The position numbers were made by a program, and so were the translations under genes. Source: Candidatus Eiseniibacteriota bacterium (GTDB taxonomy: Bacteria > Eisenbacteria > RBG-16-71-46 > JABDJR01 > JAWXBZ01). From it: a stretch of DNA of 17,820 bases. Positions 1 to 15,784 of this stretch are shown here, piece after piece; the stretch's first letter is position 1; every line of letters begins with the position of its first letter. Location: NCBI GenBank assembly GCA_034440375.1, contig JAWXBZ010000082.1:1-17820 (forward strand), read 5' to 3'. The notes beneath the pieces were generated by a model. It did not search any database, was not told the DNA's origin, and saw nothing but the letters and a program-made list of their open reading frames with translations.

Positions 1-410
1 CCGGCGGCGGTCATCAGGGGAAAGAATTCGTCATTGACGCGATAGTTTCCGCCACCACAACCGACGATGATGCCGCTTCGGTCATTGAACTGCCGCCGGG
101 CGTCCTCATCGAGTCCATCACGATACGATGGGAGACCGGAAGCCGCGATCGCCTGATCGCCGGCATACAGGCCGAACAGATCGGTCCGGGAGAGCAACTT
201 GTGCAGCTTCCGGTCGGCGACCAGGGTTCGGTTGTCCACCCCGGACACCTCGGCAGAGAGGTGTACCGGCCACCGGTCGGCGTCCCACTGGCGAATCGGA
301 AGAATGGCGGAACGCCCGCAAAGAACGGCATCCCAGATGTCCTCGATGGTCAGGCCGGCGCTGCAGACGGCGCCCATGCCCGTGATCATGATGCGTGGAA
401 CCGGCGTCAT
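1..410 (-). CDS. Beta-ketoacyl-ACP synthase family protein, N-terminal part (runs off the window edge)
   Basis: Not in the ORF track; translated by hand from ATG 410 (ATGA overlap with the upstream stop at 407-409): MTPVPRIMITGMGAVCSAGLTIEDIWDAVLCGRSAILPIRQWDADRWPVHLSAEV...DRKLHKLLSRTDLFGLYAGDQAIAASGL..., a typical ketosynthase N-terminus, open to the edge. Active site not visible. Confidence 0.88.
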   Translation of the reverse strand, partial: MTPVPRIMITGMGAVCSAGLTIEDIWDAVLCGRSAILPIRQWDADRWPVHLSAEVSGVDNRTLVADRKLHKLLSRTDLFGLYAGDQAIAASGLPSYRDGLDEDARRQFNDRSGIIVGCGGGNYRVNDEFFPLMTAA

Positions 411-1726
411 GCCGAACCGGCCCGGGAAAGCGATGCCTCCACGTCGTCAGGATGGCGAAAGACCAGCGTGCTGTTCGAGCCACCGAAGCCGAGCGAATTG
501 GACATGGCGGCCCGAATTCGCGTCGGACGCGATTCGCCCTGAACGATGTTGACATCACAATCGGGATCAGGAGTCAGGAGATTGGCATTGACCGGCGCCA
601 GTTGGCCCTTGATGGCCAGCGCGCAGATGGCGGCTTCGACGGCTCCGGCGGCGGCAATGAGATGCCCCATGCAGCTTTTCGTCGAGCTGACCAGCACCTT
701 GTCGATGTGCGAGCCCATGACGACACGCATGGCGGCGCACTCGCTCCGATCGTTCATCACGGTCGAGGTGCCATGGGCGTTGACGTAGTCGATGTTGTCG
801 GATTCCATCCCGGCGTCCAAAAGGGCCTGGCGCATGGCCTGGATCGGGCCGTCGCCGTCCGGCGGCGAATCCGTGATGCGATAACAGCTCAAGGAATTGC
901 CATCACCCGCCAGCTCGGCGTAGATGTGCGCCCCGCGGGCCCGCGCCGCCTCCCACTCCTCGAGAACCAGAAATCCCGCGCCTTCGCCGAGGACGAAACC
1001 GTTGCGAGTGGCATCGAACGGCCGGCTGGCTCGCTCGGGTGTGTCGTTGTCGGTCGAGAGCGCCCCAAGAAGGCAGAAGGCTGACAGTCCCAGCGGGGTG
1101 AGCATGGAGTCGTAGCCGCCGGCGAGCATGAAATCGGCGCGGCCGCGTCGAATGTACTTCAGGGCGGTTCCAAGGGCCTGACCACCGGAGGCACACGCCG
1201 TGTGGACAGCCGTGGCCGGACCCCGAATGCCGAACTGCCGGGTCAGAAGCCCGAGTCCCAGGTTGGCCTGGCTGCGACAGAAACCGATCGGATCGGCCGG
1301 AAAGGACGGGTCCAGCAGGCCGTCCGGATGAAACTCGCCGTCGGCAGCCGCGAAGGCGTGCACCTGGCGGAAATCCTCGAAAGTGATGCCCATCATGCCG
1401 GCCCCGGTGCTGAATCCCCAGCGATGGCTCGTTGCCGGCTCCGGGCGAATGCCGGCATCCCGGAGAGCCTCCTCGGCGGCGACCAGGGCGAAGCGCTGCG
1501 CCGGCGAGGTGAACTTCAATTGCCTGCGGTCACGGATGGTGGCCCCGGCGTCGAAGTTCTTGACCTCCGCGCCGATGCGGGTTGCGAATCCCCCGGCTTC
1601 AAAACCACGAATTTCGGCGCAGCCGCTCCTGCCGTTGACAAGGGCGGACCAGGTGGTGGCGGTGTCATTCCCGACAGGCGTCACGAGGCCGATTCCGGTG
1701 ATCGCCACCCGACGACGGCTTCTCAT
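407..1726 (-). CDS. fabF: Beta-ketoacyl-ACP synthase II (FabF-type)
   Basis: RRVAITGIGLVTPVG N-terminus; Cys-His-His triad in TACASG, NAHGTST and KSCMGHLIAAAG; SRPFD, GEGAG and SNSLGFGGSN motifs; ATGA overlap with the upstream dehydratase stop. Confidence 0.93.
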   Translation of the reverse strand: MRSRRRVAITGIGLVTPVGNDTATTWSALVNGRSGCAEIRGFEAGGFATRIGAEVKNFDAGATIRDRRQLKFTSPAQRFALVAAEEALRDAGIRPEPATSHRWGFSTGAGMMGITFEDFRQVHAFAAADGEFHPDGLLDPSFPADPIGFCRSQANLGLGLLTRQFGIRGPATAVHTACASGGQALGTALKYIRRGRADFMLAGGYDSMLTPLGLSAFCLLGALSTDNDTPERASRPFDATRNGFVLGEGAGFLVLEEWEAARARGAHIYAELAGDGNSLSCYRITDSPPDGDGPIQAMRQALLDAGMESDNIDYVNAHGTSTVMNDRSECAAMRVVMGSHIDKVLVSSTKSCMGHLIAAAGAVEAAICALAIKGQLAPVNANLLTPDPDCDVNIVQGESRPTRIRAAMSNSLGFGGSNSTLVFRHPDDVEASLSRAGSA

Positions 1727-2562
1727 CGTCGACGGCTCGACAGGCTGATCTGCGCGCTACCGGTAATCCTTCCGGTCCGCCGCGTCTCCACGACTACCGT
1801 CAGGGCATACTCCTCCAGTTCCGTAAGCTGTGCCTCGAGCTCCAATGATTCTCCCGGCGGGATGAACGTCCGCAATTTGACATCCTCCACCCTGGTTGCC
1901 ACCCACTTTTCGTCCAGCGCCGGCGCCGGGATGTCCGCGGCCAGGAGTTCCGCCAGATCCAGGCTCTGGTTCATGAGGAGGCTTCCAGGAAAAACGGGGC
2001 GTCGGGGAAAGTGGTCCATGAAGAAAGGGGCTTCATCGGGTACCTGGAAGTCGGCGACCAGGCTTTGTCCATGAACATGGCGCCGCACCTCAAGCAGGAA
2101 ATACGGCAGGTCGCTGAAGCCGCCGACGGCGGTTCCCGACCCGGAAAGAAGCTCGAACCTCTCTTGCAGGGCCAGGGGGTCGTCGAATTGTTCGGAAGCC
2201 ATCATGGGTCCGATGCAGTGGTAAAGGCGGATGACCGGAATTCCGTCGGCGGACGCTGCCCCGCGATAGACCACCGCGACGTCATCGAGGCTTTCGATCT
2301 CGGCTGCGAGATCAAGAATCTGGCCCGGCCGCACACCGGCCAACAGTTCGATCCGACCGGCGATCCCCGCGAGCGGTCGACGGGCAAAGCTCTTGGCTGA
2401 CATGATTGACCAGGCGGCCAGCTGCCCGACCGCCTCCGCCACCAGGGATGCCGAAAATTCAGAGACGGCTGCCGGGACGGTGTAGCGCCCCGTAATGTCG
2501 ACCCCCGGTTGCCCGGAATCAATATGGTCGACGAATGAAAAGGCCTGGAAATGCGGGCTCAT
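1723..2562 (-). CDS. Fused double-hotdog 3-hydroxyacyl-ACP dehydratase (FabA/FabZ-like)
   Basis: Two FabZ-like repeats: FSFVDHI...LVAEAVGQ...VRPGQIL and DHFPRRPVFPGSLL...FIPPGESL; sits within the FAS cluster. Confidence 0.85.
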   Translation of the reverse strand: MSPHFQAFSFVDHIDSGQPGVDITGRYTVPAAVSEFSASLVAEAVGQLAAWSIMSAKSFARRPLAGIAGRIELLAGVRPGQILDLAAEIESLDDVAVVYRGAASADGIPVIRLYHCIGPMMASEQFDDPLALQERFELLSGSGTAVGGFSDLPYFLLEVRRHVHGQSLVADFQVPDEAPFFMDHFPRRPVFPGSLLMNQSLDLAELLAADIPAPALDEKWVATRVEDVKLRTFIPPGESLELEAQLTELEEYALTVVVETRRTGRITGSAQISLSSRRR

Positions 2563-2581
2563 CCCCGGAATGGCCCTCGTT

Positions 2582-3025
2582 TCATGCTGGCGCCGGCCCG
2601 CCGGCCGTCCCTGCCGCCCGCTGTTGACGCAGGACCATTTTGCAGAATGTCTCCACCGTGAAGAGGCGGGGAATTTCAGACACCTTGAGCGGCGTCTTGA
2701 AACGATCCGCAGGGATTTCCGAGAGAAACGACTTCAGCCGGACGAGTCCGGCTTCGGTGAGGATGCCGCTCTTTTCGAAATCCGCCTCCGACAGGTCGCC
2801 ACGGGCCTCCTCTATGATCTTTCCGCGGGGAATCTTGACCTTGAAGGTCCGCTCCAGGCGAAAGACGATATCGAGGAAATCGATCGACTCGGCCCCGAGA
2901 TCATCGATGAGGCGCGCTCCCGGGTTCATCTTCTCGAGATCACAGCCCAGGGCGTCTGCCATGGTGGCCGCCACTTTCGGATAGATGGCCGCGATCTCTT
3001 CCTCGCTGATGCCTGCCTGATTCAT
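2582..3025 (-). CDS. Acyl carrier protein, extended 147-aa form
   Basis: LIDDLGAESIDFLDIVFRLERTFKVKIP phosphopantetheine region, then an insertion before the TVETF last helix; GGAG RBS overlapping the end of fabG. Confidence 0.9.
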   Translation of the reverse strand: MNQAGISEEEIAAIYPKVAATMADALGCDLEKMNPGARLIDDLGAESIDFLDIVFRLERTFKVKIPRGKIIEEARGDLSEADFEKSGILTEAGLVRLKSFLSEIPADRFKTPLKVSEIPRLFTVETFCKMVLRQQRAAGTAGGPAPA

Positions 3026-3031
3026 GTCGTT

Positions 3032-3796
3032 TCACTCCATCTTGAATCCGCCGTCCACATTCAGGACCTGGCCCGTGATGTAGTCGGCAAATCGGGAACT
3101 TAGAAACCAGACGGCATCAGCAACCTCTTCGGGGCGTCCGATGCGGCGAAGCAGAATTCGGGATAGCACCGTCTCGCCAAGGGCCTCGCGGACCTCTTGA
3201 GACATCGTTGTGTCGATCACACCGGGAGCCACGGCATTCACCATGATATTTCGCGGTGCCAGCTCCACGGCCAGGGAGCGGGTGAAGGCATTGATGGCCC
3301 CTTTGCTGGCCGCATAATTTGTCTGACCTCTCCCGCCTTTTTCCCCCGCCACCGAACTGATGTTGATGATCTTTCCGCGGCGCTTCGACACCATCCAGGG
3401 CGCCACGGCCCGGGTCATGTTGAAGGTGCCGGTCACGTTGGTGTCGAGTACGGCGGCAATGTCCTCATCTTCCAGCGCCATCAGCGGGTTGTCGCGGATG
3501 ATGCCGGCATTGTTGACCAGGACATCAATTTTTCCGGTTCGTTCACAGACCTGTTCCGCGAACCGGGTACAGGCGGCAGGATCGCGGATATCCACCAGTT
3601 TTGCGGTCACACGCTTTCCGGGAAGCGATGCCACCAGTTCGTCCGCGGCCGCCTGGTCATGAAGAAATGTGAAATTGACATCCATTCCGGCGGATGACAA
3701 AACGGAGACAATGGCGCGTCCGATTCCGCGGCTGCCCCCGGTTACAATGGCCACTCCATCCGCCAGACCGGAATCCAGATCGGGGTGTCTGTTCAT
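3032..3796 (-). CDS. fabG: 3-oxoacyl-ACP reductase (SDR)
   Basis: VTGGSRGIG, NNAGIIRD, NISSV, GQTNYAASK (YxxxK), VAPGVIDT and ITGQVLNVDGG motifs. Start placed at ATG 3796 (ATGA overlap with the upstream stop), not 4216. Confidence 0.93.
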   Translation of the reverse strand: MNRHPDLDSGLADGVAIVTGGSRGIGRAIVSVLSSAGMDVNFTFLHDQAAADELVASLPGKRVTAKLVDIRDPAACTRFAEQVCERTGKIDVLVNNAGIIRDNPLMALEDEDIAAVLDTNVTGTFNMTRAVAPWMVSKRRGKIINISSVAGEKGGRGQTNYAASKGAINAFTRSLAVELAPRNIMVNAVAPGVIDTTMSQEVREALGETVLSRILLRRIGRPEEVADAVWFLSSRFADYITGQVLNVDGGFKME

Positions 3797-4548
3797 CCGG
3801 AAATGGAAAAGCCGCCGTCGACGACCAGCGTGTGACCCGTAATCATGGCCGCTTCCGGCAGGCAGAGCAAGTAGACCGCTCCGGCCACATCCTCGGGTGT
3901 GAGTGACGGTCCCGCCGGTGCCCGCTCCGCGAATTCCGCGAGCAATTGCTCCCGATTCGGGAAGTGGCGAAGGGCATCGGTATCCACCACGCCGGCACTG
4001 ACCACGTTGACCCGGATGCCGCGGGGCCCCAGCTCCTGGGCCAGACTGCGGGCCACCGATTCCATGGCCGCCTTGGAGGCGCCGATGAAGGCATAGTGCG
4101 GAATGGCTCTCGAGGCGCCCAGACTCGAAAGCGCGATGATGCTTCCGCCATGCGTCATGAGCGGAACGGCTTGCTGCGCCAGCACGTTCAAAGCCAGCGC
4201 ATTGGTCTCCAGGCACCGGCGCCAGTGCTTTCGCGTCAGTTCCAGCGCCGGCTTAAGGACTCCCAACGCCGCGTTGCTGATCACGAGGTCGACGCGGTCA
4301 AACTGCTCCCGAAAAGCGACAAATGCCTCGACCAGGCTGTCCGGGTCGCCCACATCAGCCTGGATGGCCATCGCCCTCCGACCCATCTCACGAATCGACC
4401 GGCAGACATTCTCCGCTTCTTCGTGGCTATTGTGATAGAGAATCGCCACATGACAACCGGCCGTGCCAAGCTTCAGAGCGATGGCGCGCCCGATTCCCCG
4501 GGAGCCTCCGGTAATGAACGCGGTTCTTTCGGCGAGTGGCTGTGTCAC
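3793..4548 (-). CDS. fabL: Enoyl-ACP reductase, FabL-like SDR
   Basis: ITGGSRGIG; NAALGVLKP; SSLG; Y-x6-K catalytic spacing (YAFIGASK); DTDALRHFPNREQLL closely resembles Bacillus FabL as recalled; GTG start. Confidence 0.8.
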   Translation of the reverse strand: MTQPLAERTAFITGGSRGIGRAIALKLGTAGCHVAILYHNSHEEAENVCRSIREMGRRAMAIQADVGDPDSLVEAFVAFREQFDRVDLVISNAALGVLKPALELTRKHWRRCLETNALALNVLAQQAVPLMTHGGSIIALSSLGASRAIPHYAFIGASKAAMESVARSLAQELGPRGIRVNVVSAGVVDTDALRHFPNREQLLAEFAERAPAGPSLTPEDVAGAVYLLCLPEAAMITGHTLVVDGGFSISG

Positions 4549-4611
4549 GTCTAGTGATAAGAATCCGTTCCGGGAGTCAAATGGCGCCGGCTGGCTGCCT
4601 CGAGAAGGGCG

Positions 4612-4617
4612 ATTCTA
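4612..4617 (-). promoter_or_regulatory. Possible -10 element for the FAS cluster
   Basis: TAGAAT on the minus strand about 65 nt upstream of the fabL-like start; no clear -35 element. Confidence 0.35.
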
Positions 4618-4679
4618 CAGATTTTTACCGGGAAGCGTAGCGCCTGGACAGGATGAGAACAGGACCGTGGCTTCGCGAC

Positions 4680-5441
4680 TCAATCCGGCTGCTTCTGGGT
4701 CAGCTTCTTCAGGGCGGCTTGAGTTTCGGGAAAATACCAGCACTCGAGGAACTCGTCCCGCGAGGAGGCTGCCAGCGGCGCCATCGAACCGGCGGTCGCG
4801 CTGCGAAGATAGCGCTTGATGCGTGCGTACGCCACGTGCGGCAGGGCTGCTCGTTCCGCGGCCACGGTCTCGGCCACCGTTTGCAGATGCCGGAAGGATG
4901 TCACCTCGTGGACGAGGCCGGCCCGGTAGGCCGCCTCGGGAAGCAGGGTTTCTCCGGTCAAGGCCAGCCGATGCGCGGTCCGATTGCCGACCAGCTCCGA
5001 AAGTATCATGACCGCCTCCCGGGGGACCGGCAGCCCCAGCCGAATTTCGGTAAAACCGAGCGAGCGATTTTCATCGCAGACAATCCGGTAGTCCGCCGTC
5101 AGTGCCAGGATCAGGCCTCCGGCCATGGCGTGTCCATTGATGGCGGCTACGAGCGGGCGCGGGAAAAGGTACATGTCACGGCAGAGTCCGAGGAAATCGT
5201 CCACAAAGCTGGTCATCTCCCGCCGCGAGAGTTCCATGAGGCACGCCACGTCGAGTCCGTTGCAGAAGAAACGATCGCCGAGGCCGCAGAGGATGACCGC
5301 GCCGACTGAGTCGTCGTGGGCCATCTCCTCGAAGAGGGCACGAAGCCGCCGAACGATGTCAGGGTCGAGGCTGTGGGTCTTGCCCCTGTCGAGCCTGACC
5401 CAGACCAGGCGGTCGCGTCGATCGATCTGGAGGGGGGTCAT
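4680..5441 (-). CDS. Enoyl-CoA hydratase/isomerase (crotonase) family, delta3-delta2 isomerase-like
   Basis: FFCNGLDV and PLVAAINGHAMAGGLILALTADYR oxyanion motifs; GFTEIRLGL carries the single catalytic Glu. Start placed at ATG 5441; the 5954 extension overlaps another gene. Confidence 0.9.
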   Translation of the reverse strand: MTPLQIDRRDRLVWVRLDRGKTHSLDPDIVRRLRALFEEMAHDDSVGAVILCGLGDRFFCNGLDVACLMELSRREMTSFVDDFLGLCRDMYLFPRPLVAAINGHAMAGGLILALTADYRIVCDENRSLGFTEIRLGLPVPREAVMILSELVGNRTAHRLALTGETLLPEAAYRAGLVHEVTSFRHLQTVAETVAAERAALPHVAYARIKRYLRSATAGSMAPLAASSRDEFLECWYFPETQAALKKLTQKQPD

Positions 5442-5447
5442 TTCGCG

Positions 5448-5453
5448 ATCATA
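5448..5453 (-). promoter_or_regulatory. -10 element of a probable leaderless transcript (crotonase)
   Basis: TATGAT-cgcgaa-ATG on the minus strand; no Shine-Dalgarno sequence. Confidence 0.55.
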
Positions 5454-5473
5454 GCGCCGTGCGATGCCTTCTG

Positions 5474-6154
5474 TCAGCCGAGGCCGAAGCCCTCGGTCAG
5501 CCATCGACCGAGGAACTGCATGCGGCCGATCAGCAGCGAAATTCGGGCCATGACCGTATAGCCGAAGGCGGCACCAAATGTCACCATGAGGAACCATATT
5601 CCGACGCGGGCGGCGCCCCCGAAAGCGCCGGAATGTTCCTTGGAGAAGAAGAAGTACACGAGTCCACACATCACCCCGGTGACCAGAATGATGTTGTTCA
5701 TGGTGTCCAGGAAGACGAACTGGTTGTCTGCCATCACGATGAAGGGCCGAATGGTGGAGTAAATCTGCCCCACGAAGTCCGACTGCATGTAGCGCATCAT
5801 GTTGGTGCCGGCTGTCCAGCCGACGATGAGCGCCACCGCCCAGCGGGAAAGGTGATCGACCGGCGGCACCAAGCGCATAAGGAGCAGGATGCCAAACACC
5901 AGCGGCACCCAGAAGATCGGGTCGGCCGGGGCCTCGGCCAGCTGGGGGAACCAAGGGCGGATGAGCGGTGGATGGATCTTGCCGAACAGGTTCGGCATCA
6001 GCGTGTTCCAGAATGCCGTGCTCATCCAGTAGGCGGCAGAAATGCCGACAAATAGATGTTCGGCAAACTTGTAGAACGGATTGTCCTTGTAAAGAAACGA
6101 GAAGATCATCAGCGTCAGCAGCGCGCCGACCCAGAGCTCCAGCATGTCAGCCAT
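5474..6154 (-). CDS. Uncharacterised polytopic membrane protein (gene D of the DUF6754-like operon)
   Basis: About 6 hydrophobic segments; SFLYKDNPFYKFAEHLFVG and FLMVTFGAAFGYTVMARISLLIGR; TGATG overlap with the upstream stop. Confidence 0.88.
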   Translation of the reverse strand: MADMLELWVGALLTLMIFSFLYKDNPFYKFAEHLFVGISAAYWMSTAFWNTLMPNLFGKIHPPLIRPWFPQLAEAPADPIFWVPLVFGILLLMRLVPPVDHLSRWAVALIVGWTAGTNMMRYMQSDFVGQIYSTIRPFIVMADNQFVFLDTMNNIILVTGVMCGLVYFFFSKEHSGAFGGAARVGIWFLMVTFGAAFGYTVMARISLLIGRMQFLGRWLTEGFGLG

Positions 6155-7029
6155 CAGGCACGCCCTCCACGGGCATTCGACTTCCCGAGAAAATAGGCCA
6201 CATTGCCAACGATGATGAGGGCCAGGATGACCAGGTGAGCCACCGTCTGGGGACCCATCTTGCTGATGGCATCCTCGCTCTTGGCCAGGAACTCGGGATA
6301 TCCGATCGAGAAGGCCGCCTCGTACTCCGCGGCTCCCTGCAGCCCCCCCATCAATCCAAGCAGCTGGCGCGGATAGTAGGGGTAGAGAAGCGGCGCCTCG
6401 ACGGCCGTCACGCCGCCGGCCACGGCCACGTTTGATCGATCACCGGCGAACTGAATCCACTCCTTGACGCCCGGGAAGCCCGAGCCGATGGCGATAATGA
6501 GGTCGAAGTCGGCCACCGAGTTGATCGGTTTCGTCAGCTCGATCTGGTCGGTGGGTGTGCCGGTGGCGTCTCCGGTGAACAGCGTCTTGAACTTGGTGCC
6601 AAGGCTGTTGATGACGCCCTGGTTGCCGGCTTTGTAGCCGAGGTTGACGTAGTCGATGCCGTATGTCGCACTCGGAAAATCCACCTTGACGATTTCGTCG
6701 ATCGCCCGGGTGATGATGTCCGGGCCGGTGGCCCAGAGCGTCATCAGATACAGCTTGTGCCCCTTGGAAAGGACATGCCGCACGGCCGTAGCCGACATCG
6801 GCCAGTTTTCCGCCAACGTGCCCGGGGCGAAATCGAGCGAGACAAGAATCCGGGATCCGGCGGGGAGTGTCTCGATCTTGTCATAGATGGCCTGGACGAC
6901 CGGGCTCGGTCGCGTCGGAATCTTCAGCTTGAACAGCATGGGGATGATGACCGACACTGCGATCAGGAGGAATATCCAGCGCCGGTCGATTCGAGCCAGC
7001 GGATGCTGCGACGCTTGAGGTCGGCTCAT
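6154..7029 (-). CDS. Uncharacterised membrane-anchored alpha/beta-domain protein (gene C)
   Basis: N-terminal TM after RIDRR, soluble domain (YGIDYVNLGYKAG, PYYPRQLLGLMGGLQGAAEYE), C-terminal TM; ATG 7029 lies 1 nt after the upstream stop, with a GAGGGA RBS. Confidence 0.87.
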   Translation of the reverse strand: MSRPQASQHPLARIDRRWIFLLIAVSVIIPMLFKLKIPTRPSPVVQAIYDKIETLPAGSRILVSLDFAPGTLAENWPMSATAVRHVLSKGHKLYLMTLWATGPDIITRAIDEIVKVDFPSATYGIDYVNLGYKAGNQGVINSLGTKFKTLFTGDATGTPTDQIELTKPINSVADFDLIIAIGSGFPGVKEWIQFAGDRSNVAVAGGVTAVEAPLLYPYYPRQLLGLMGGLQGAAEYEAAFSIGYPEFLAKSEDAISKMGPQTVAHLVILALIIVGNVAYFLGKSNARGGRA

Positions 7030-7030
7030 G

Positions 7031-7792
7031 TCAGGAGTCCCTCGCGCCGAGGTAGGACCGCTCGATTCCAAGGATGATCTTGAGTGACGTGGAGATAATT
7101 CCCAGGGCGATGCCGATCAGGATGGCCCGTTGACCGGCCAGATTCGGAATGGCGAGGATCCAGCCGGAGAGATTCGGAATGTGAAAGAACTGGAGCGGCT
7201 CCGGCAGCCAAAAGGTGAGGTAGTGACCGAGTGGCGTGCGGCCCACCAGGATGATGGTGGCCGAGATGAGGAGCAGCGTGGCCTCCTTCGTCTTGGCCCG
7301 GAACGCCCGGTACGACGCCGAGGCCACGAAGAAGGCCAGAAGCGAGAACATCGTCGACTGAAGCGGATTGAACGTCGCCTGGTAGAGCCAGTCGAACAGC
7401 GAGCCCTGGGATTGCACGGTGCCCTTCCATGTGCCCGGCAGCACCAGGGAGTAGAGACCGGCGCCGAGCATGACAACGAAGGCCAGAACGGTCACCAGGT
7501 TGTACTGCCAGTGATGGGCCCGGCGGGAAATCTTCTCGCCGTGAATCTTGAGGAGATTGAGTCCACCGAGAACGAATGCAATGGCGGCGATGATGTTGAA
7601 GAAGCTTGAAAACTTGTCATCGGCCTCGTCGAACGGCGCGTGGGGAATGAAAACCGACGCAACCATGACCGATCCGACCACGAAGGTCACCAGGAGCGGC
7701 AGGGTCCGCCGAAGGGACGGCACCACGATCGATGCCGTCACGCCGGCCAGCACGATGAGCACGATGAGCAGTGCGAACATCCCTGGTGTCAT
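7031..7792 (-). CDS. Uncharacterised polytopic membrane protein (gene B)
   Basis: About 7 hydrophobic segments; PLQSTMFSLLAFFVASASYRAFRAK and AGQRAILIGIALG...ILGIERSYLG; ATG 7792 with a GGGAGA RBS. Confidence 0.88.
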   Translation of the reverse strand: MTPGMFALLIVLIVLAGVTASIVVPSLRRTLPLLVTFVVGSVMVASVFIPHAPFDEADDKFSSFFNIIAAIAFVLGGLNLLKIHGEKISRRAHHWQYNLVTVLAFVVMLGAGLYSLVLPGTWKGTVQSQGSLFDWLYQATFNPLQSTMFSLLAFFVASASYRAFRAKTKEATLLLISATIILVGRTPLGHYLTFWLPEPLQFFHIPNLSGWILAIPNLAGQRAILIGIALGIISTSLKIILGIERSYLGARDS

Positions 7793-7824
7793 GTGTCTCC
7801 CTGCCGAACGGTGATGTCGGCCGC

Positions 7825-8745
7825 CTAGAAGTTGAGTGCGAACATTCGTCGGAATCCTTCGGCGAAACTGGCCATGCCGCCGCCTCCAAAGTTTCCGAAG
7901 GTCATGAGCAGGCAACCCACCACGATCGAGAACATGGCCAGTGCCTTGCCGACATCCTGCCCGCGCAGGCTGCCGAGCATCCGGAGGTCGCGGGAAAGGT
8001 AAGCGCTGGCGGCAAAGAGTTCCTCGCCGATCAACGTGTAGTCGCAGGCGGCCACGAAGAAGGGAAGTTGGGTTGGCTGTGCCGTTCCAGCCACCTGGAT
8101 CGCTCCGATCGAGTTGCCGGTTTCCGCCAGCACCAGCGATTCGGCGAAGAACGCGCCAAGGTAGAAGCAGGCCGCCGGTTTTTCCCGCAGCATGAAACCG
8201 TCCAGAGCGGCGACATAGCCGAACTGCTCGTCCGTGACGTAATAAACCATGTCATCTCGAAAGAGGTCGGGCCGGCCTGCCGCCTGGTAAGACTGCTTTA
8301 CGACTTCCCGGGCGGTGGCCATGACGAGCGATCGCGACGTTGGCACCGTCAGCGATGTTTCATACTCGGCTGTCTTGCGGGCAACCGCTGACAGGATCGT
8401 GAGACCCGCCACCGTCTGGACATTGTCCATGTCCTGATTTCCCGGCACGAACAGAACTGTCTTGCCCATCTCGGTGGCCCGGCCGACCGCCTCTTCGACC
8501 GCGGTGATGGCCGCGATCTTCCGGATATAGAATTCGCGCCCCCGTCCGGCCTGCAGGGTAAAGATCAGGATGGCCGCTGAAACGATGACGGTGAGAACGA
8601 GAAGATTGACCTTTCCCGCATTGAACCAGGGAGAGGGAACGGCGGCCGCATCCTGGGCCAGCGCGGCCGTGGCCAGGGGCAGATGAATCAGGAGGGTGCC
8701 GAGGAGAAACGCGGCCGATTTCTTGAGCCGGACCGGATACGGCAT
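7825..8745 (-). CDS. DUF6754-like membrane protein (gene A)
   Basis: Signal peptide (…ATAALA/QD), TM, then IRKIAAITAVEEAVGRATEMGK...FAESLVLAETG...QLPFFVAACDYTLIGEELFAASAYLS and a C-terminal TM; ATG 8745 with a GAGGGG RBS. DUF name is from recall. Confidence 0.8.
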   Translation of the reverse strand: MPYPVRLKKSAAFLLGTLLIHLPLATAALAQDAAAVPSPWFNAGKVNLLVLTVIVSAAILIFTLQAGRGREFYIRKIAAITAVEEAVGRATEMGKTVLFVPGNQDMDNVQTVAGLTILSAVARKTAEYETSLTVPTSRSLVMATAREVVKQSYQAAGRPDLFRDDMVYYVTDEQFGYVAALDGFMLREKPAACFYLGAFFAESLVLAETGNSIGAIQVAGTAQPTQLPFFVAACDYTLIGEELFAASAYLSRDLRMLGSLRGQDVGKALAMFSIVVGCLLMTFGNFGGGGMASFAEGFRRMFALNF

Positions 8746-8857: not shown

Positions 8858-9250
8858 ATGTCGCTCCGGACTGCCGATCATGGCCCGCGTCTGGCCGCTG
8901 CCCTGCGAGCGGGGGCTGTTTACGACTGGATCCTCGGACTGGTCATCCTCACGGCCCACCCGGCGCTCTTCCGGCTATTTCAGACGCCCCGCCCCGATGA
9001 TCTCTTTTTCTTTCGGATGAACGCCCTGGCCCTGTTCCTGCTCGGACTTTTCTATTGGGGGGTGGGGATGGATCCGGTCGGCCGGCGTTGGGCCGTTCGA
9101 CTCGCGGTCTCCTTCCGGTATCTCGGTGGCCTCATCCTCATGATGCTGACGGCTGCCCACCAACCGGAGGGGTGGGCAACCTATGTCGCGTTCGGAGTGG
9201 CCGACCTCGCCTGGGGGACGCTGTGGCTGGTCCTGCTGTCGCGCCAATAA
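8858..9250 (+). CDS. Small four-TM membrane protein of unknown function
   Basis: 130 aa with four hydrophobic helices (GAVYDWILGL, LFLLGLFYW, YLGGLILM, FGVADLAWG); fills the gap between operons. Confidence 0.78.
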   Translation: MSLRTADHGPRLAAALRAGAVYDWILGLVILTAHPALFRLFQTPRPDDLFFFRMNALALFLLGLFYWGVGMDPVGRRWAVRLAVSFRYLGGLILMMLTAAHQPEGWATYVAFGVADLAWGTLWLVLLSRQ

Positions 9251-9283
9251 AAAACCCGCCATCGCAGGGGGACGATAGCGGGT
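9247..9283 (-). terminator. Intrinsic terminator, minus strand
   Basis: Minus strand ACCCGCTATCG-tccccctg-CGATGGCGGGT (11-bp stem with one G-U pair) followed by TTTTTATT; no U-tract on the plus side. Confidence 0.8.
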
Positions 9284-9576: not shown

Positions 9577-10899
9577 CTAATACGGGATAAGGCGGAACCA
9601 GAAGCGGGTCGGATCATCGTCGCCGTCGGTTCGCCGGATGACGTCGAGTCGAATGGCGCGGACCCCGGGAAGCCAAACGTCGCGACGCAGGCCGAGGCCG
9701 ATGGAGGTGCGGGATGCACCATCAAGACTTGGGAGGCGCGTCGAGGAAGCGCCGCGCCCCTCTCCCCAGGTTGTCCCAATATCGACGAAGGGGATGAACT
9801 GCAGATGCAGCAGTTCGAGAAGGGGGATTCGGGCCCGCTTCAGAAGATCGAGGCCGAGCTCATATTCGATGCGAGCCGACAGCCTTCGTCGCCCCGTAAA
9901 TTCCAGCCGTTCGTATCCCCTCAGGTTGCCATCCCCACCCAGGTAAGGTTCCTCCTGGATTGGCGGCGATCCGGCTGTGTTTTGCCCATCCAGGGAGAGT
10001 GAAAGAGTGCCGCCCGGGAGGATCGGGCGGATCGTGATACCGATTTCCTGCGCAGCAAAATCATCGGAAGCCTTTGAGTTTGCCATGCACATCTCGGCTT
10101 CGGCCCGAAGGCTCATCAGGTCACCACCCAGTCGCCAGTCCCCCGCCGCGGTGAGCCCGTTGTGTTTGACCTCGTCGACAACCGGGTTCGGCTGCTCCAT
10201 CGGTGTACCGCCGCCAAGGAGGTGATCGTCGGTCACCGCCTCCGCCGATCGGTCCTCCCGCAGCCAGGCCCCGATTTTGAGTTCACCCTCGCGGCTTCGG
10301 ATCGGGGTCAGCCAGAGGCCTGCCTGTCGGCGCCTGAGGTAGTCCTGCCGGTCCTGTCCGGCCAACAGCGCCAGAAATGCGGACCCGGTTGCAACCGGGT
10401 CGGGGCCAAAGGTCTTCATCCGGTCGAACGCCTCCAGCCGAATCATCGTGCCTGTGCGCCGGCCGCCCGCTGTGAGGACGGCCTGTCCGACCCAACGGTG
10501 CGCCGCGATCGCATAGCCTGCGTCTCCTTTGAATCGCAGACCCCGCGCGATGCGGACGTCCAGTCCGGAGCTGACCCGCGCCCCCTCAACCCGATTGAAC
10601 ATCGACCATCGTCCGGGCGCGACGGCGAGTGAAAAGCCCCCCCGACCGCGAAACGGAACGCCAAGGGAATCAAAATTTCCGCCATCCAGGGCACTGATTC
10701 GCGTGTCCAGCTCCGGCCGGTCGGGGATCCGCGATTCCGGTGAGAGGAGCGAATCGAGTTTCATGCTCTCTCGCGCCAGGACTTGATTCACGTCGGAGGT
10801 GGGGGAGGCATCGGAAGTCGAGGATGGTTCGGCGGCCAGGATCGGCGTGACGGCCGCAAGCCATCCGGCCACCACCCACCAGGTTGTGCGCCGGATCAC
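9577..10899 (-). CDS. Outer-membrane beta-barrel protein (DUF5686 C-terminal-like / Omp85-like)
   Basis: Signal peptide; FNRVEG motif; amphipathic strands; LGGDGNLRGY loop motif; FIPFVDIG; aromatic C-terminus WFRLIPY; GTGA overlap with the upstream stop. Confidence 0.8.
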   Translation of the reverse strand: MIRRTTWWVVAGWLAAVTPILAAEPSSTSDASPTSDVNQVLARESMKLDSLLSPESRIPDRPELDTRISALDGGNFDSLGVPFRGRGGFSLAVAPGRWSMFNRVEGARVSSGLDVRIARGLRFKGDAGYAIAAHRWVGQAVLTAGGRRTGTMIRLEAFDRMKTFGPDPVATGSAFLALLAGQDRQDYLRRRQAGLWLTPIRSREGELKIGAWLREDRSAEAVTDDHLLGGGTPMEQPNPVVDEVKHNGLTAAGDWRLGGDLMSLRAEAEMCMANSKASDDFAAQEIGITIRPILPGGTLSLSLDGQNTAGSPPIQEEPYLGGDGNLRGYERLEFTGRRRLSARIEYELGLDLLKRARIPLLELLHLQFIPFVDIGTTWGEGRGASSTRLPSLDGASRTSIGLGLRRDVWLPGVRAIRLDVIRRTDGDDDPTRFWFRLIPY

Positions 10900-11807
10900 T
10901 CGCTACCCCGATCGAAGATCGACGGGTCCAGTTCTGGATTGAGGCGATAATCGTCGAACGTCATGACAAACTCGATCGAAGCGGGCGCGCCGGCCAGCTG
11001 GACCAGGCCCGTCAGGTCAATTCTCCCCGTGATCCGTTTTTCGAGCCAGCGATCCTCGATGGGTTGCCACTCGCGGGTCAGGAGATCGAGCCCGTCCAGG
11101 GCCCACGCGAACGGCACGTTGGCGAGGACGAACTCCTCACGGACGATCTGGTATCGGGGAGCCAGCAGCCAGAGGCGGCCCCCGGGCAGTTCATCGAAAT
11201 CGGACCTGGGTTCGAACGGGATCTCGAAAACCGCCGTGGAGTCGGTCCGATGGATCGGCCCCTGGAAGAATCGAAACTTGTCGAGCCGCTCCAGATAGAA
11301 GGGTATGTCCTCGATCCGCCTCCGGTTTACATCGACCACGACGCCGTCATCCTCTTCGTCTTCGTCCGGTGGCCGGATCGAACCATCGGCCAACACGGTC
11401 CATGTTGTGTCGAGCACGGCCGCCCCGACCCATCGATCCGGCGCTCGAAAGTAGTTTCGCCGAACCGTCTCCCTGATCTGTGTCCGGGCCTTCCTTCCGG
11501 AGTAGCGAACCACGATGCGGATGCGCCGGGTAAAGGCCATCGTCTCAAGGCCTGCGTATTTTCGCCGCTCGCCGGCAACTGCCTTTCGGAGGATTTCGTG
11601 GAGGTCGACAAGTCGGCCTCCCACGGTCAATTCTCTTATCTCGAGCCGGGGATGCGTGCTGTCGCCCAGTATTTCAGTCCGGCCGGCTCCAGGTGGCTGT
11701 ACCCGAATTTCGTCGGCCTGTGCCCCGGCCGTCCGGCTCGACCCGATCAACAGCAGGGCGAGCAGCCATGAGACACCCGTCTGTCGATACCTATATAGTG
11801 TGGGCAT
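10896..11807 (-). CDS. Secreted protein resembling the N-terminal half of DUF5686 proteins
   Basis: Signal peptide (WLLALLLIG...AGA/QA), EILRKAVAG, VFEIPFEPRS...GRLWL, and a FDDYRLNPELDPSIF end. Start ATG 11807 (or 11810) with AGGAG upstream. Confidence 0.72.
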   Translation of the reverse strand: MPTLYRYRQTGVSWLLALLLIGSSRTAGAQADEIRVQPPGAGRTEILGDSTHPRLEIRELTVGGRLVDLHEILRKAVAGERRKYAGLETMAFTRRIRIVVRYSGRKARTQIRETVRRNYFRAPDRWVGAAVLDTTWTVLADGSIRPPDEDEEDDGVVVDVNRRRIEDIPFYLERLDKFRFFQGPIHRTDSTAVFEIPFEPRSDFDELPGGRLWLLAPRYQIVREEFVLANVPFAWALDGLDLLTREWQPIEDRWLEKRITGRIDLTGLVQLAGAPASIEFVMTFDDYRLNPELDPSIFDRGSE

Positions 11808-11808
11808 C

Positions 11809-12750
11809 ATGCTCCTAGAAGGACGGGTCATCAGCGCCAGAAGCCGAAGCTTCACGGTGGAAACGGCGGACGGCCGATTGACGTGCCGGGTTTTGAAGGG
11901 GTTGCGTAATCGTTTTCCGAATCTGGTCGATCCGGTCGCCGTGGGAGACCTCGTCAAGGTCCGGCGTGGAAACGAGAACGACTCGACCATAGAAGAAGTC
12001 GCTCCGAGGGTCAACAAGATCTCCAGGCCCGCGGTCGGGCGTGAGGACCATGAACAGTTGATCGCGGCGAATCTGGGCCGCGCGGTCATCGTGCAGGCGG
12101 TGGAGCCGCAATGGAAAACATCCACCTGGGATCGCTACCTGGTGATGGCCGCACTCGGTGCCGTGCCGCCGATTCTCGCCCTGAACAAGATCGATCTCGA
12201 TCCCGAGTCGGCTCGCGCTCCTGAATTCGATGTCTACCGGGCGCTGGGAATTCCGGTTCAATCGGTCTCGGCCGTGACCGGCGAGGGGCTGCCCGAGTTG
12301 ATCGGTCACATGGCCGGTGGCATGACGGTCTTCATCGGACCGTCCGGCGTGGGAAAATCAAGTCTCATCAACGCCCTTGGGCCCGGCACGGGCCTTCGAA
12401 CCGGCGAGCTGAGCCGGGGCACCGGAAAGGGGCGCCACACCACCTCATGGACCGAATTGCTCCAGCTCGATCAGGGAATCGAGATCGTCGACAGCCCTGG
12501 GCTTCGGGTTCTCGGCCTGTGGGGCCTTGAAGCACATGAGCTGGCGCCGCTCTTCCCGGAGTTTGCCGGCCTCATCGAGAGCTGCCGTTTTCGCGTCTGC
12601 ACGCACATCCATGAGCCTGACTGCGCAGTTCGGGCAGCCGTGGAATCGGGTGAGGTAGCCGGCTTTCGTTACGAGAGCTTTCTTCGGATTCGGCAGGCGC
12701 TGCTTGACGAGGTGGAGCGACCGCGCGGGGGGCGTGCCCGGCGGCGCTAG
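11809..12750 (+). CDS. rsgA: Ribosome small subunit-dependent GTPase A
   Basis: OB-fold start (EGRVI...VAVGDLV), NKID, GPSGVGKSS, GRHTT, DSPG and the zinc motif CRFRVCTHIHEPDC. Start placed at ATG 11809. Confidence 0.96.
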   Translation: MLLEGRVISARSRSFTVETADGRLTCRVLKGLRNRFPNLVDPVAVGDLVKVRRGNENDSTIEEVAPRVNKISRPAVGREDHEQLIAANLGRAVIVQAVEPQWKTSTWDRYLVMAALGAVPPILALNKIDLDPESARAPEFDVYRALGIPVQSVSAVTGEGLPELIGHMAGGMTVFIGPSGVGKSSLINALGPGTGLRTGELSRGTGKGRHTTSWTELLQLDQGIEIVDSPGLRVLGLWGLEAHELAPLFPEFAGLIESCRFRVCTHIHEPDCAVRAAVESGEVAGFRYESFLRIRQALLDEVERPRGGRARRR

Positions 12751-13615: not shown

Positions 13616-13644
13616 TTGACATCTCGCAACTGATTAAACATGAT
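13616..13644 (+). promoter_or_regulatory. Sigma-70 promoter of the agmatinase-XRE-XRE operon
   Basis: TTGACA (13616-13621), 17-bp spacer, CATGAT (13639-13644). Confidence 0.6.
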
Positions 13645-13723
13645 TGAGCGTAAATTTCCATTATTCACCGTGCCGTTGGTCCGGTCCGGGGTCGGTGCCG
13701 GACCAGTTCGAGGAGGAAACGCA

Positions 13724-14617
13724 GTGCTTCCCAGGCCGAGAATTCATGTCGAGCCGCCCATGAATTTCGGTGGATTGCCGTCGGAGGAGTCCCTCTTCGA
13801 GACTTCCCCACTGGTCATCCTGCCGATTCCGCTGGAACAGACCACGTCCTATCGCGGCGGGACGAAGGATGGACCGGCGGCGCTCATCCATGCCTCACGG
13901 TTCATGGAATTGGCCGATTGGGAGACCGGCGATGTCCCGGCAACCCGTGGCATCCATACCCTCCCGGCCCTCGAGCCGCGGGCCTCGGGGCCGGCGGAGA
14001 GCCTCGACCAGATCGAGGCCACTTCGCGCTGGCTGCTCGACTCGGGGAAGCTGATCGGCAGCCTGGGCGGTGAGCACAGCCTCACCTTCCCGATCGTCAG
14101 GGCCTACAAGGACTTGTATCCGGATCTGTCTGTGCTTCAGCTCGACGCCCATGGCGACCTGCGGGCCACCTACCATGGATCTGAGTTCAGCCATGCGTCG
14201 GTCATGCGCCGCATCGTTGGAATCGGCGTTCCAACCGTGGGGCTGGGCATCCGCAGCGTCTGCGAGGAGGAGATCGAACTTATCCGGGATCGTCGGCTGG
14301 CTCGCTATTCCGGTCGTGACCTGGTTCGCCGGCGTGTTCCCCTCGAGACCATGCTTCGAGATCTGACCGGGACGGTGTATGTCACGCTCGACCTCGACGG
14401 TTTCGATCCGTCGGAGGCACCCGGCGTCGGGACACCGGAGCCGGGCGGATTCGGTTGGTTTGACTTTCTGGAAATCATCGAGGCGTTGAAGGGACGACGC
14501 CTCGTCGGCTTCGACGTGGTCGAATTGATGCCGATCGCCGGTCAATCGGTCAGCGAATTTCTGGCCGCCAAGGCCGCGTATGTGCTTGCCTCCACCCTCC
14601 TTCGCGGCGTGATTTGA
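13724..14617 (+). CDS. speB: Agmatinase (ureohydrolase family)
   Basis: TTSYRGGTKDGP, GGEHS, LDAHGDLR, SHAS, DLDGFDPS, PGVGTPEPGG and FDVVEL motifs; GTG 13724 after AGGAGG. Confidence 0.9.
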   Translation: MLPRPRIHVEPPMNFGGLPSEESLFETSPLVILPIPLEQTTSYRGGTKDGPAALIHASRFMELADWETGDVPATRGIHTLPALEPRASGPAESLDQIEATSRWLLDSGKLIGSLGGEHSLTFPIVRAYKDLYPDLSVLQLDAHGDLRATYHGSEFSHASVMRRIVGIGVPTVGLGIRSVCEEEIELIRDRRLARYSGRDLVRRRVPLETMLRDLTGTVYVTLDLDGFDPSEAPGVGTPEPGGFGWFDFLEIIEALKGRRLVGFDVVELMPIAGQSVSEFLAAKAAYVLASTLLRGVI

Positions 14618-14618
14618 C

Positions 14619-15185
14619 ATGGCGGCCCCCAACGGCGCAGCCCTCGGTCGGCGCATTCGCAGCCTTCGGATCGAGAAGGGGCTGACCCTGAAGCAAATCG
14701 AGGCCCGGGTGGGTATTTCGGCAACACACGTCTCCGAGGTCGAGCGAGGCCGGACTTCCCCGACCGTCGGTGCGCTGGCCCGTATCGCAGAGGCCCTGGG
14801 GGTCCGCCCATCTCATCTCATCGATTTTCCGGTCGGAAAGCCTCAGACGATCTCCCGGCGGGGGAGTCGCCTCCAACTGGCCGCCCCCGACGGTCGGGCC
14901 AGTTCGGATGTGCTCATCCCCGCTGACCCCGAAGCCGAGGTGAGCATGTTTCTGGTGACACTGGCGCCCGGATTCACCGAGGGGGTTCCGGGCGAATCCC
15001 GGATCGGCGACAAGATATTTCGCATCATCGAAGGAGAGGCCGACCTCGAACTCGGCGACCAGGTTCACCGGCTCGTTCCGGGGGACACGATTCAATTTAG
15101 ATCGAATGTTTCGCACCGCTTGATCAACCGTTCCTCTTCGGTCTGTCGCTTGCTCTGGGTAATGTGGCCCCGGATGACCATTTGA
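14619..15185 (+). CDS. XRE-family HTH plus cupin transcriptional regulator (PuuR/SutR-like)
   Basis: LTLKQIEARVGISATHVSEVERGRTSPTVGAL HTH; C-terminal cupin (LVPGDTIQF..SHRLIN). Confidence 0.9.
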   Translation: MAAPNGAALGRRIRSLRIEKGLTLKQIEARVGISATHVSEVERGRTSPTVGALARIAEALGVRPSHLIDFPVGKPQTISRRGSRLQLAAPDGRASSDVLIPADPEAEVSMFLVTLAPGFTEGVPGESRIGDKIFRIIEGEADLELGDQVHRLVPGDTIQFRSNVSHRLINRSSSVCRLLWVMWPRMTI

Positions 15186-15196
15186 GGAAGAGGGAA

Positions 15197-15784
15197 ATGG
15201 ACGACAGCATGAACACCAGCATCGACAGGGCCGAACTTGGGCAGCGCGTGCGGGATGCCCGTCATCGGCGCGGCATGACGCTCAAGGATCTGGATCAGGC
15301 GGCGGGTCTCTCCGCCACGCACATCTCGGAGATCGAGCGTGGCAAGACCTCGCCGACGATCGGAGTCCTGATCCGGATCGCCGGGGCCCTGGGACGGGAG
15401 GCTTCGTACTTCGTCGAACCGGAAGTACTGCCGGATGTGTCAATCACAAGGGCGAGCGATCGCGTGGCCAGCAATTTCGGCCCGGCACGGATTCGCGTTG
15501 AGACATCCGGCATACCCGGCGGGCGGTTGCAGGCGGTCAGCCTGAGCCTCGATGGGGATCGCAATCCCCTGGTAATCGGTCGGGGCGAGGGCTCGTTGGG
15601 CGCCTTCGTTCTCTCGGGCTCCATCCGGTTCGAAACCGGTGCCGGCGTCCAGGTCCTGGAACCCGGCGATTCCATTTATGTGCGCCTGGAGGAGCCGATT
15701 CGAATCGCCAGTACTGGCGGTCCGGCGGAACTCTTCGCCGTGACCACGGCCCCTCTCGAACCGGGCGACGGGGACACCCCCTAG
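15197..15784 (+). CDS. Second XRE-family HTH plus degenerate cupin regulator
   Basis: MTLKDLDQAAGLSATHISEIERGKTSPTIGVL HTH; LEPGDSIY cupin; ATG 15197 after GAGG/GAGGG. Confidence 0.9.
   Translation: MDDSMNTSIDRAELGQRVRDARHRRGMTLKDLDQAAGLSATHISEIERGKTSPTIGVLIRIAGALGREASYFVEPEVLPDVSITRASDRVASNFGPARIRVETSGIPGGRLQAVSLSLDGDRNPLVIGRGEGSLGAFVLSGSIRFETGAGVQVLEPGDSIYVRLEEPIRIASTGGPAELFAVTTAPLEPGDGDTP

Follow-up and report, generated by a model that had tools for sequence, protein, structure and literature searches.

The question raised by this locus is what a tight cluster of four membrane-protein genes does for the cell that carries it. The cluster lies on the minus strand of a 17,820 nt stretch of contig JAWXBZ010000082.1 (assembly GCA_034440375.1) from a Candidatus Eiseniibacteriota bacterium; the stretch was analysed over its full length and is referred to below as the window. 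A sequence-only reading had proposed that the four genes, here called A to D, specify a heteromeric transport or sensing complex assembled from inverted-topology pairs of paralogues, one of A and C and the other of B and D. The answer that we tentatively favour is that A to D encode subunits of one conserved, uncharacterised inner-membrane complex (the DUF6754 system), which would serve in transport or coupling.

The four-gene locus

Four head-to-tail open reading frames (ORFs) are carried on the minus strand, with 32 nt separating A from B (7793-7824), a single nucleotide between B and C (7030), and a 1 nt overlap of C and D (6154). Both the ORF listing and the translations agree with the earlier description of four co-oriented membrane genes with gaps of 32, 1 and -1 nt. 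The genes are as follows (aa, amino acids; TM, transmembrane; orientations are predictions discussed below).

7825-8745, minus strand: gene A, 306 aa, DUF6754; N-terminal signal-like segment, TM1, cytoplasmic alpha/beta domain, TM2, short C-terminal helix
7031-7792, minus strand: gene B, 253 aa as called, polytopic; six conserved TM segments, N-in, C-in
6154-7029, minus strand: gene C, 291 aa; TM1, periplasmic alpha/beta domain, TM2, both termini cytoplasmic
5474-6154, minus strand: gene D, 226 aa, polytopic; about six TM segments, probably N-out

All four are real genes, since tblastn finds each of them in related loci, at identities of 56-70% (A), 44-64% (B), 32-58% (C) and 42-63% (D). The motif GAGGGG lies 8 nt before the ATG of A at 8745, and a strong terminator-like hairpin on the strand of A (9283-9254) is found about 500 nt upstream of this start codon. 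The start of B is less clear. Its homologues begin at the position of window-B residue 27, where the codon is CTT and a start is therefore impossible; the candidates are the ATG at 7792, with GGGAG upstream, and GTG codons 23 and 24 as alternatives. Window B would thus have either an extra N-terminal hydrophobic helix or a start about 70 nt later.

Conservation of the genes as a unit

A relative of A is encoded in at least 582 of 600 scanned genome stretches (species-level genomes). The best 80 of the at least 582 confirmed loci were examined, and the counts given from here on describe the relatives closest to window A. Searches of these loci by tblastn with the four window proteins detected 141 copies of A, 111 of them with at least 2600 nt downstream, and in 107 of the 111 the next genes are B, C and D, in this order and on the same strand. 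Co-occurrence of the four genes across genomes, as anticipated by the sequence-only reading, is therefore well supported. Three of the four exceptions lack only a B match that passes the 50% coverage filter, and the fourth, on a complete Zixibacteria chromosome (locus L049, 9482-11869), is a DUF6754 gene with a C-terminal S49 (SppA-type) peptidase domain.

The best 80 loci carry at least 10 phylum labels, the largest groups being Zixibacteria (26), Ignavibacteriota (13), Eisenbacteria and Planctomycetota (five each), Gemmatimonadota (4) and Calditrichota (2), while 21 loci are without an assignment. The family as a whole is large. All 8000 scored candidates in the search with A passed E 1e-3, and 120 among the matches listed were 60-93% identical. 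A profile of the A core, searched against a library of 1.84 billion proteins, found 2463 clusters (50% identity) at E <= 1e-3 and 1108 at E <= 1e-30, and among the matches listed from that search 150 of 150 were strong DUF6754 proteins.

A single ABCD set is present in 29 loci, and two or three tandem modules occur in many Zixibacteria and Ignavibacteria, the extra A copies of the arrays also being DUF6754 proteins by Pfam. Three copies of A were seen in 21 loci, 18 of which hold the complete third module inside the fetched stretch (ABCDABCDABCD). Whichever subunit is considered, the three types of module fall into distinct clades, and window A is closest to the middle type. When module rank was followed on FastTree trees of the 21 three-A loci, it changed three times for A, three for B, two for C and three for D, against a possible minimum of two. 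An ancient triplication of the entire module, with its subunits diverging in concert ever since, follows from so few changes of rank; because related genomes share labels, the rank test reveals cognate sets and not independent events.

Architecture and orientation of A and C

Gene A is a full-length member of Pfam family DUF6754 (PF20539), with an E value of 2.3e-119 and a score of 397.7 bits (cut-off 27) over positions 4-250 of the 257 in the profile. The same match was returned by Pfam scan for 64 of 64 A cores tested. AlphaFold2 (AF2) models built from the locus alignments gave a pLDDT of 88.3 and a pTM of 0.81 for A, and 95.0 and 0.90 for C; in the model of A, pLDDT falls below 50 at residues 1-19 and 25-28. 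The parts of the two proteins are predicted as follows.

8656-8745, minus strand: A residues 1-30, basic N-terminus, hydrophobic run and Ala-x-Ala
8545-8619, minus strand: A TM1, residues 43-67; AF2 helix 43-67, hydropathy peak 2.32
7993-8514, minus strand: A cytoplasmic alpha/beta domain, residues 78-251; helix a0 and six beta-alpha units
7885-7986, minus strand: A TM2, residues 254-287; long helix in the AF2 model, C-terminus outside
6301-6903, minus strand: C periplasmic alpha/beta domain, residues 43-243; helix a0 and six beta-alpha units, with an insert between b3 and b4

Residues 1-30 of A are likely to be a Sec signal peptide. Orientation was judged from the positive-inside bias, counted as lysine plus arginine (K+R) and averaged over 100-117 homologues. 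In A, the domain side carries 8.0 K+R against 2.6 on the other side when both TM helices are counted, and 4.6 against 1.6 on the N side at TM1. The bias of C is the reverse, with 3.8 and 4.2 in its short tails (sum 8.0) against 1.6 and 1.8 on the domain side (sum 3.4). Natural domain fusions point the same way. Homologues of A are fused at their N-termini to FN3, PQQ-type propeller and peptidyl-prolyl isomerase (PPIase) domains, and at their C-termini to the S49 peptidase of L049, RHS repeats or EF-hands; one homologue of C (P0125) has an N-terminal zinc ribbon pair, and another has a duplicated ectodomain. From charge bias and fusions together, the A domain is predicted to be cytoplasmic and the C domain periplasmic, in line with the opposite orientations first proposed for them.

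Most of the invariant residues of the A family fall within the alpha/beta domain (residues 78-251), which has 44 invariant columns among 100 sequences. The acidic residues E92, E202, E208, D235, E241 and E242 of A are invariant. The C protein, with a mean column identity of 41%, is less conserved than this domain. The ectodomains fused to A homologues, binding modules that are often borne on the periplasmic termini, are variable and come and go, and window A itself has none.

The nature of these ectodomains brings up two further explanations. One is a machine for envelope biogenesis or for the handling of proteins in the periplasm, perhaps alongside the Sec translocon or as part of quality control, whose membrane subunits would pass energy or a conformational change to client-holding periplasmic modules. 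The FN3 domains, BamB-like PQQ propellers, parvulin-type PPIase (P0149) and S49 signal-peptide-peptidase domain (L049) fused to A would suit such a role, as would the M28 peptidase found immediately upstream in 7/80 loci. We nevertheless think it unlikely, given that window A is without an ectodomain, that no fusion is universal, that no Sec, Bam or Lol gene is recurrent beside the module, and that conservation within the system is greatest on the cytoplasmic side. The other is a transmembrane sensor, in which variable periplasmic modules would detect a signal and the conserved cytoplasmic domain of A would be the output. The pairing of variable ectodomains with a constant cytoplasmic domain, and the zinc ribbons at the N-terminus of one C homologue, are what a sensor might show, but no kinase, cyclase, helix-turn-helix (HTH) or other output domain is present in the module or recurrent beside it, the ectodomains are not of the usual sensor types, and three tandem modules, each with at least 12 extra TM helices, would be atypical. 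A sensor is accordingly very unlikely.

Topology and conserved loops of B and D

Across 106 homologues of B, even-numbered loops average 10.4 K+R and odd-numbered loops 2.2, by which B is clearly predicted to be a six-TM, N-in protein. D is probably N-out, although its basic C-terminal tail is ambiguous, and its conservation peaks in short basic loops. The invariant residues are R162, A163 and F164 of B, and D24, N25, Y28 and the run from Y167 to G176 of D. In both proteins they are situated in or beside loops assigned to the cytoplasm.

Are A and C, or B and D, related?

The models of A and C are closely alike in plan, each with a TM helix, helix a0, six beta-alpha units and a long TM helix, to which A adds a short terminal helix. 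When their secondary-structure strings were aligned, 222/295 columns were in the same state and co-linear, and the score of 148 was well above a block-shuffle null of 82 +/- 13 (0/300 shuffles reached 148); reversed C scored 112. The shared layout of TM helix, alpha/beta domain and TM helix noted at the outset is thus upheld by the models and the string alignment. What the string test shows is common layout and not ancestry, because any helix-flanked beta-alpha domain would score well.

Ancestry was sought at the sequence level with negative results. No relationship between subunits was found by BLASTP (A-C, E 4.6; B-D, E 1.8). Comparison by hhalign of profiles built from alignments of 100-117 sequences gave A-C a probability of 3.3% over 27 columns covering one TM helix only, compared with 2.8% for the control pair A-D, and gave B-D 0.2%, the same as the control B-C; the C-terminal halves of B and D reached 0.3%. 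Local scores were equally flat, at 24.5 for A-C against 24.0 for A-D and 18.9-19.5 for reversed profiles, and at 15.4 for B-D against 15.8-17.7 for reversed profiles. Secondary-structure scoring, low-mact and global modes of hhalign brought no signal above the controls, and no significant internal repeats were detected by hhalign (probabilities of 3.1% for B and 11% for the halves of D). Under permissive settings, a co-linear, sub-optimal A-C alignment did appear, running over 231 columns (A 37-285 against C 8-283) with P 0.036. The similar peptide ends that had been quoted for A and C and for B and D are all present in the proteins, but by profile comparison they are no more alike than expected by chance.

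These results bear directly on the model of a heteromeric transporter made of two inverted-topology paralogue pairs (A/C and B/D), each a duplicated gene flipped in the membrane. In its favour, the secondary-structure elements of A and C agree in number and order, one PDB family ranks first for both, the two are oppositely oriented, as B (N-in) and D (probably N-out) may also be, and the sub-optimal A-C alignment is co-linear. The six-unit beta-alpha domain is, however, a common architecture that could arise twice, and BLASTP and hhalign scored both pairs no better than cross-pair or reversed controls, with no help from secondary-structure scoring and no internal repeats. The claimed paralogy thus finds no support, and the model built on it is quite unlikely. 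A and C are mirror images in layout and orientation without demonstrable relatedness. A common ancestor is possible, judging from the models, in which the likeness would be shared only at the level of architecture, and the two may be very old inverted duplicates. For a relationship of B with D, the sequence comparisons offer no support.

Family, fold and literature searches

No Pfam or NCBIfam family was matched above cut-off by B, C or D. The membrane subunits matched none of the known transporter families in these databases (ABC, MFS, TRAP, TTT, PTS, RND etc.), and no ATPase or enzyme family was found within the module or as a recurrent neighbour in the 80 loci. Together with relaxed scans of homologues, this confirms the original impression that the operon has no ATPase and no recognisable transporter family. 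The relaxed Pfam scans (106, 112 and 117 homologues, and 64 A cores) gave scattered weak matches that amount to no family assignment. The best recurrent one was ABC TMD0, a generic helix bundle, in 35/106 B homologues (best E 2.1e-5); others were Acyl_transf_3 in 16/106 B homologues, CoA_binding_3 in 5/64 A cores, and TctB once among 117 C homologues (E 0.11).

Profile searches against PDB sequences matched only the FN3 part of A homologues, with a best E value of 0.38 for B, nothing for D and no relative of C. In the ESM Atlas, B fell into unnamed clusters only, and named clusters held no usable match for C. Foldseek searches of the PDB returned only weak Rossmann-like matches, the best being 3wdk_A for the A model (E 2.2e-3, TM-score 0.30) and 3wdk_D for the C model (E 1.9e-4, TM-score 0.36). 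The top family for both is the archaeal 4-phosphopantoate-beta-alanine ligase (3wdk, 3wdl and 3wdm; TON1374, 4mb0 and 4mb2), which resembles A and C in its alpha/beta core and long helices. It was rejected as their fold family, with TM-scores of 0.30-0.42 (below 0.5), a root-mean-square deviation of >11 to 14 Å, identities of 8-13%, and no match in the PDB profile or relaxed Pfam searches; the C domain is, moreover, predicted to lie in the periplasm, where ATP is absent. The resemblance is a likeness of shape and not family membership.

Some of the weak matches have a common flavour, that of a transmembrane group-transfer enzyme. A would bind an activated donor (a nucleotide-sugar, acyl-CoA or similar), B and D would pass the donor or a lipid-linked intermediate across the membrane, and the periplasmic C domain would transfer the group to an acceptor in the envelope. 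Weak pointers to such an activity are the halves of GT-B glycosyltransferases, UDP-sugar 2-epimerase and OtsA in the Foldseek lists for A and C, a touch of the C profile on TagA-type transferases (E 0.19), the CoA_binding_3 and Acyl_transf_3 matches given above, one PMT_2/DUF2142 fusion (P0136), and the fatty-acid-synthesis-like genes that start 32 nt after D in the window. Every one of the matches falls short of significance or of the curated cut-off, with TM-scores of 0.2-0.4, the neighbours of fatty-acid type lack conservation, and no polysaccharide or lipid gene set is recurrent. Group transfer is therefore an improbable function for the module.

No paper naming DUF6754 or PF20539 was found in the library searched, and other queries, including combinations of phylum and keyword, returned nothing relevant among titles and abstracts. 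This is consistent with the statement of the sequence-only reading that no functional characterisation was known. The Pfam entry describes DUF6754 as a domain of unknown function and is silent on B, C and D, on topology and on tandem modules.

A proposed inner-membrane complex

The conserved complex that we tentatively favour would have a membrane part of about 16 helices, two from A, six from B, two from C and about six from D. It would hold two soluble alpha/beta domains of one architecture on either face of the membrane, that of A in the cytoplasm and that of C in the periplasm. The polytopic subunits B and D would form a path or transducer, and the A domain would dock on their conserved cytoplasmic loops and bind a conserved ligand from the cytoplasm, by which the cycle is gated or energised, while the C domain and, where present, the ectodomains of A would handle a periplasmic ligand. 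Conservation peaks in the cytoplasmic domain of A and is high in the cytoplasmic loops of B and D, and the periplasmic side is more variable, a pattern which suggests that an unchanging process in the cytoplasm is coupled to periplasmic partners that vary. From the transporter originally proposed, a domain on each face of the membrane and a conserved four-gene unit are retained; that it transports anything stays a conjecture.

Several points weigh against such a complex. Physical assembly of A to D is something that we infer from genetics only, and we likewise infer that the complex transports, what each part does and how it is energised. Neither B nor D matches a transporter family; both may have a known or enzyme-like fold. 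The A domain is 56-70% identical across phyla, which is unusual for an accessory domain of a transporter and would also fit an enzyme. In L049 the A gene stands alone, with no B, C or D within 10 kb. Finally, the neighbourhood gives no hint of a substrate, because the flanking genes are heterogeneous.

A bolder version of the proposal is that the system represents a multi-subunit membrane transporter, or a machine for energy coupling, of a new class. The engine would be its near-invariant cytoplasmic A domain, binding a cytoplasmic ligand, the structurally equivalent periplasmic C domain would be the relic of a very old inverted duplication, and three specialised module types would work side by side in Zixibacteria and Ignavibacteria. 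This we consider rather doubtful.

Whatever its activity, the module is among the most conserved membrane gene sets of these poorly studied lineages. Three of the four subunits are absent from the family databases, and all four are functionally uncharacterised. Because the module places equivalent soluble domains on the two sides of the membrane and has no known subunit to energise it, it falls outside the existing classes of transporter, secretion and signalling systems. Working out its role could reveal a new principle of transport or coupling and would annotate thousands of 'hypothetical' genes in bacteria of sediment, soil and groundwater. Experiments are feasible, since the cultured Caldithrix abyssi (L001) carries the module.

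Gene neighbourhood

The 119 ORFs around the modules of the 80 loci have no consistent functional theme. The only recurrent neighbours are a GlmL-like ASKHA protein gene paired with the gene of a 375-aa protein (20/80 loci), PPDK (16/80) and the M28 peptidase directly upstream of the module (7/80); the window's other neighbours are not conserved beside it.

The GlmL-like protein (PF13941, about 617 aa) and the 375-aa soluble protein adjoin the first A gene in Zixibacteria, Ignavibacteria and Phycisphaerae, either co-directional with A or divergent from it (L028 2105-5122, L018, L034, L040, L041, L044, L046, L047, L050, L054-L057, L061, L062, L065, L072-L074, L077 and L080). The 375-aa protein has a mean column identity of 71%, and no Pfam or PDB relative of it was found. 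The window has no copy of this pair, which may be functionally linked to the module.

In the Caldithrix-type loci (L001 10816-13217 and 14783-16402; L003; L007; L006; L010) the module is interrupted. Between A and B there is a gene for a Por_Secre_tail protein or one of Schlafen/AlbA_2 ATPase-like type, between C and D there is an NYN/OST-HTH nuclease-like gene, and D is followed by DNA methylase/Mrr genes; in L006 and L010 the gene after A encodes a nucleotidyltransferase or a DNA methylase. The intervening genes have the look of mobile or defence-type elements inserted in the operon.

Downstream of D in the window is a fatty-acid-synthesis-like set (407-5441, minus strand), which begins 32 nt past the D stop codon and is preceded by a promoter-like site at 5477-5448. 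Its genes are listed below.

4680-5441, minus strand: enoyl-CoA hydratase
3793-4548 and ~3032-3790, minus strand: two short-chain dehydrogenases
2582-3025, minus strand: acyl-carrier protein
1723-2562, minus strand: FabA-like dehydratase
407-1726, minus strand: ketoacyl synthase

The linkage of this set to the module is not conserved, the ORF at 4680-5954 having relatives in only 3/80 loci.

On the other side of the module, the following genes and ORFs were noted.

8858-9250, plus strand: candidate ORF for a hydrophobic protein of 130 aa, no family, divergent from A and ending at the hairpin 9254-9283
9577-10899, minus strand: Omp85-like outer-membrane protein gene
10896-12125, minus strand: ORF of 409 aa, no family
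11515-12750, plus strand: RsgA GTPase gene
13640-14617, plus strand: arginase-family gene
14619-15185 and 15164-15784, plus strand: overlapping genes for HTH-plus-cupin regulators

The Omp85-like gene implies that the organism has two membranes. The 409-aa ORF and the RsgA gene overlap, so one of these two calls may be spurious.

Comparison with known systems

Two kinds of membrane system invite comparison with the DUF6754 module. Dual- or inverted-topology pairs, such as those of the small multidrug-resistance type and the Fluc-type channels, consist of partners that are small, all-helical and recognisably homologous. The module resembles them in having adjacent genes and in the opposite positive-inside bias of A and C, which have the same architecture. 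It differs in that homology of A and C is undetectable, that what is mirrored is a soluble alpha/beta domain anchored through two helices, and that two further, unrelated polytopic subunits (B and D) are present.

TRAP (DctPQM) and TTT (TctABC) systems are multi-subunit transporters that have no ATPase. Like them, the module has several membrane genes in one operon, no ATPase, a periplasmic alpha/beta component and paralogous copies within a genome. None of its proteins matches DctQ/M, TctA/B or a family of binding proteins in sequence, and the module departs from both systems in two structural respects: the predicted periplasmic domain, that of C, is anchored in the membrane at both ends, and a conserved domain, that of A, is placed on the cytoplasmic side.

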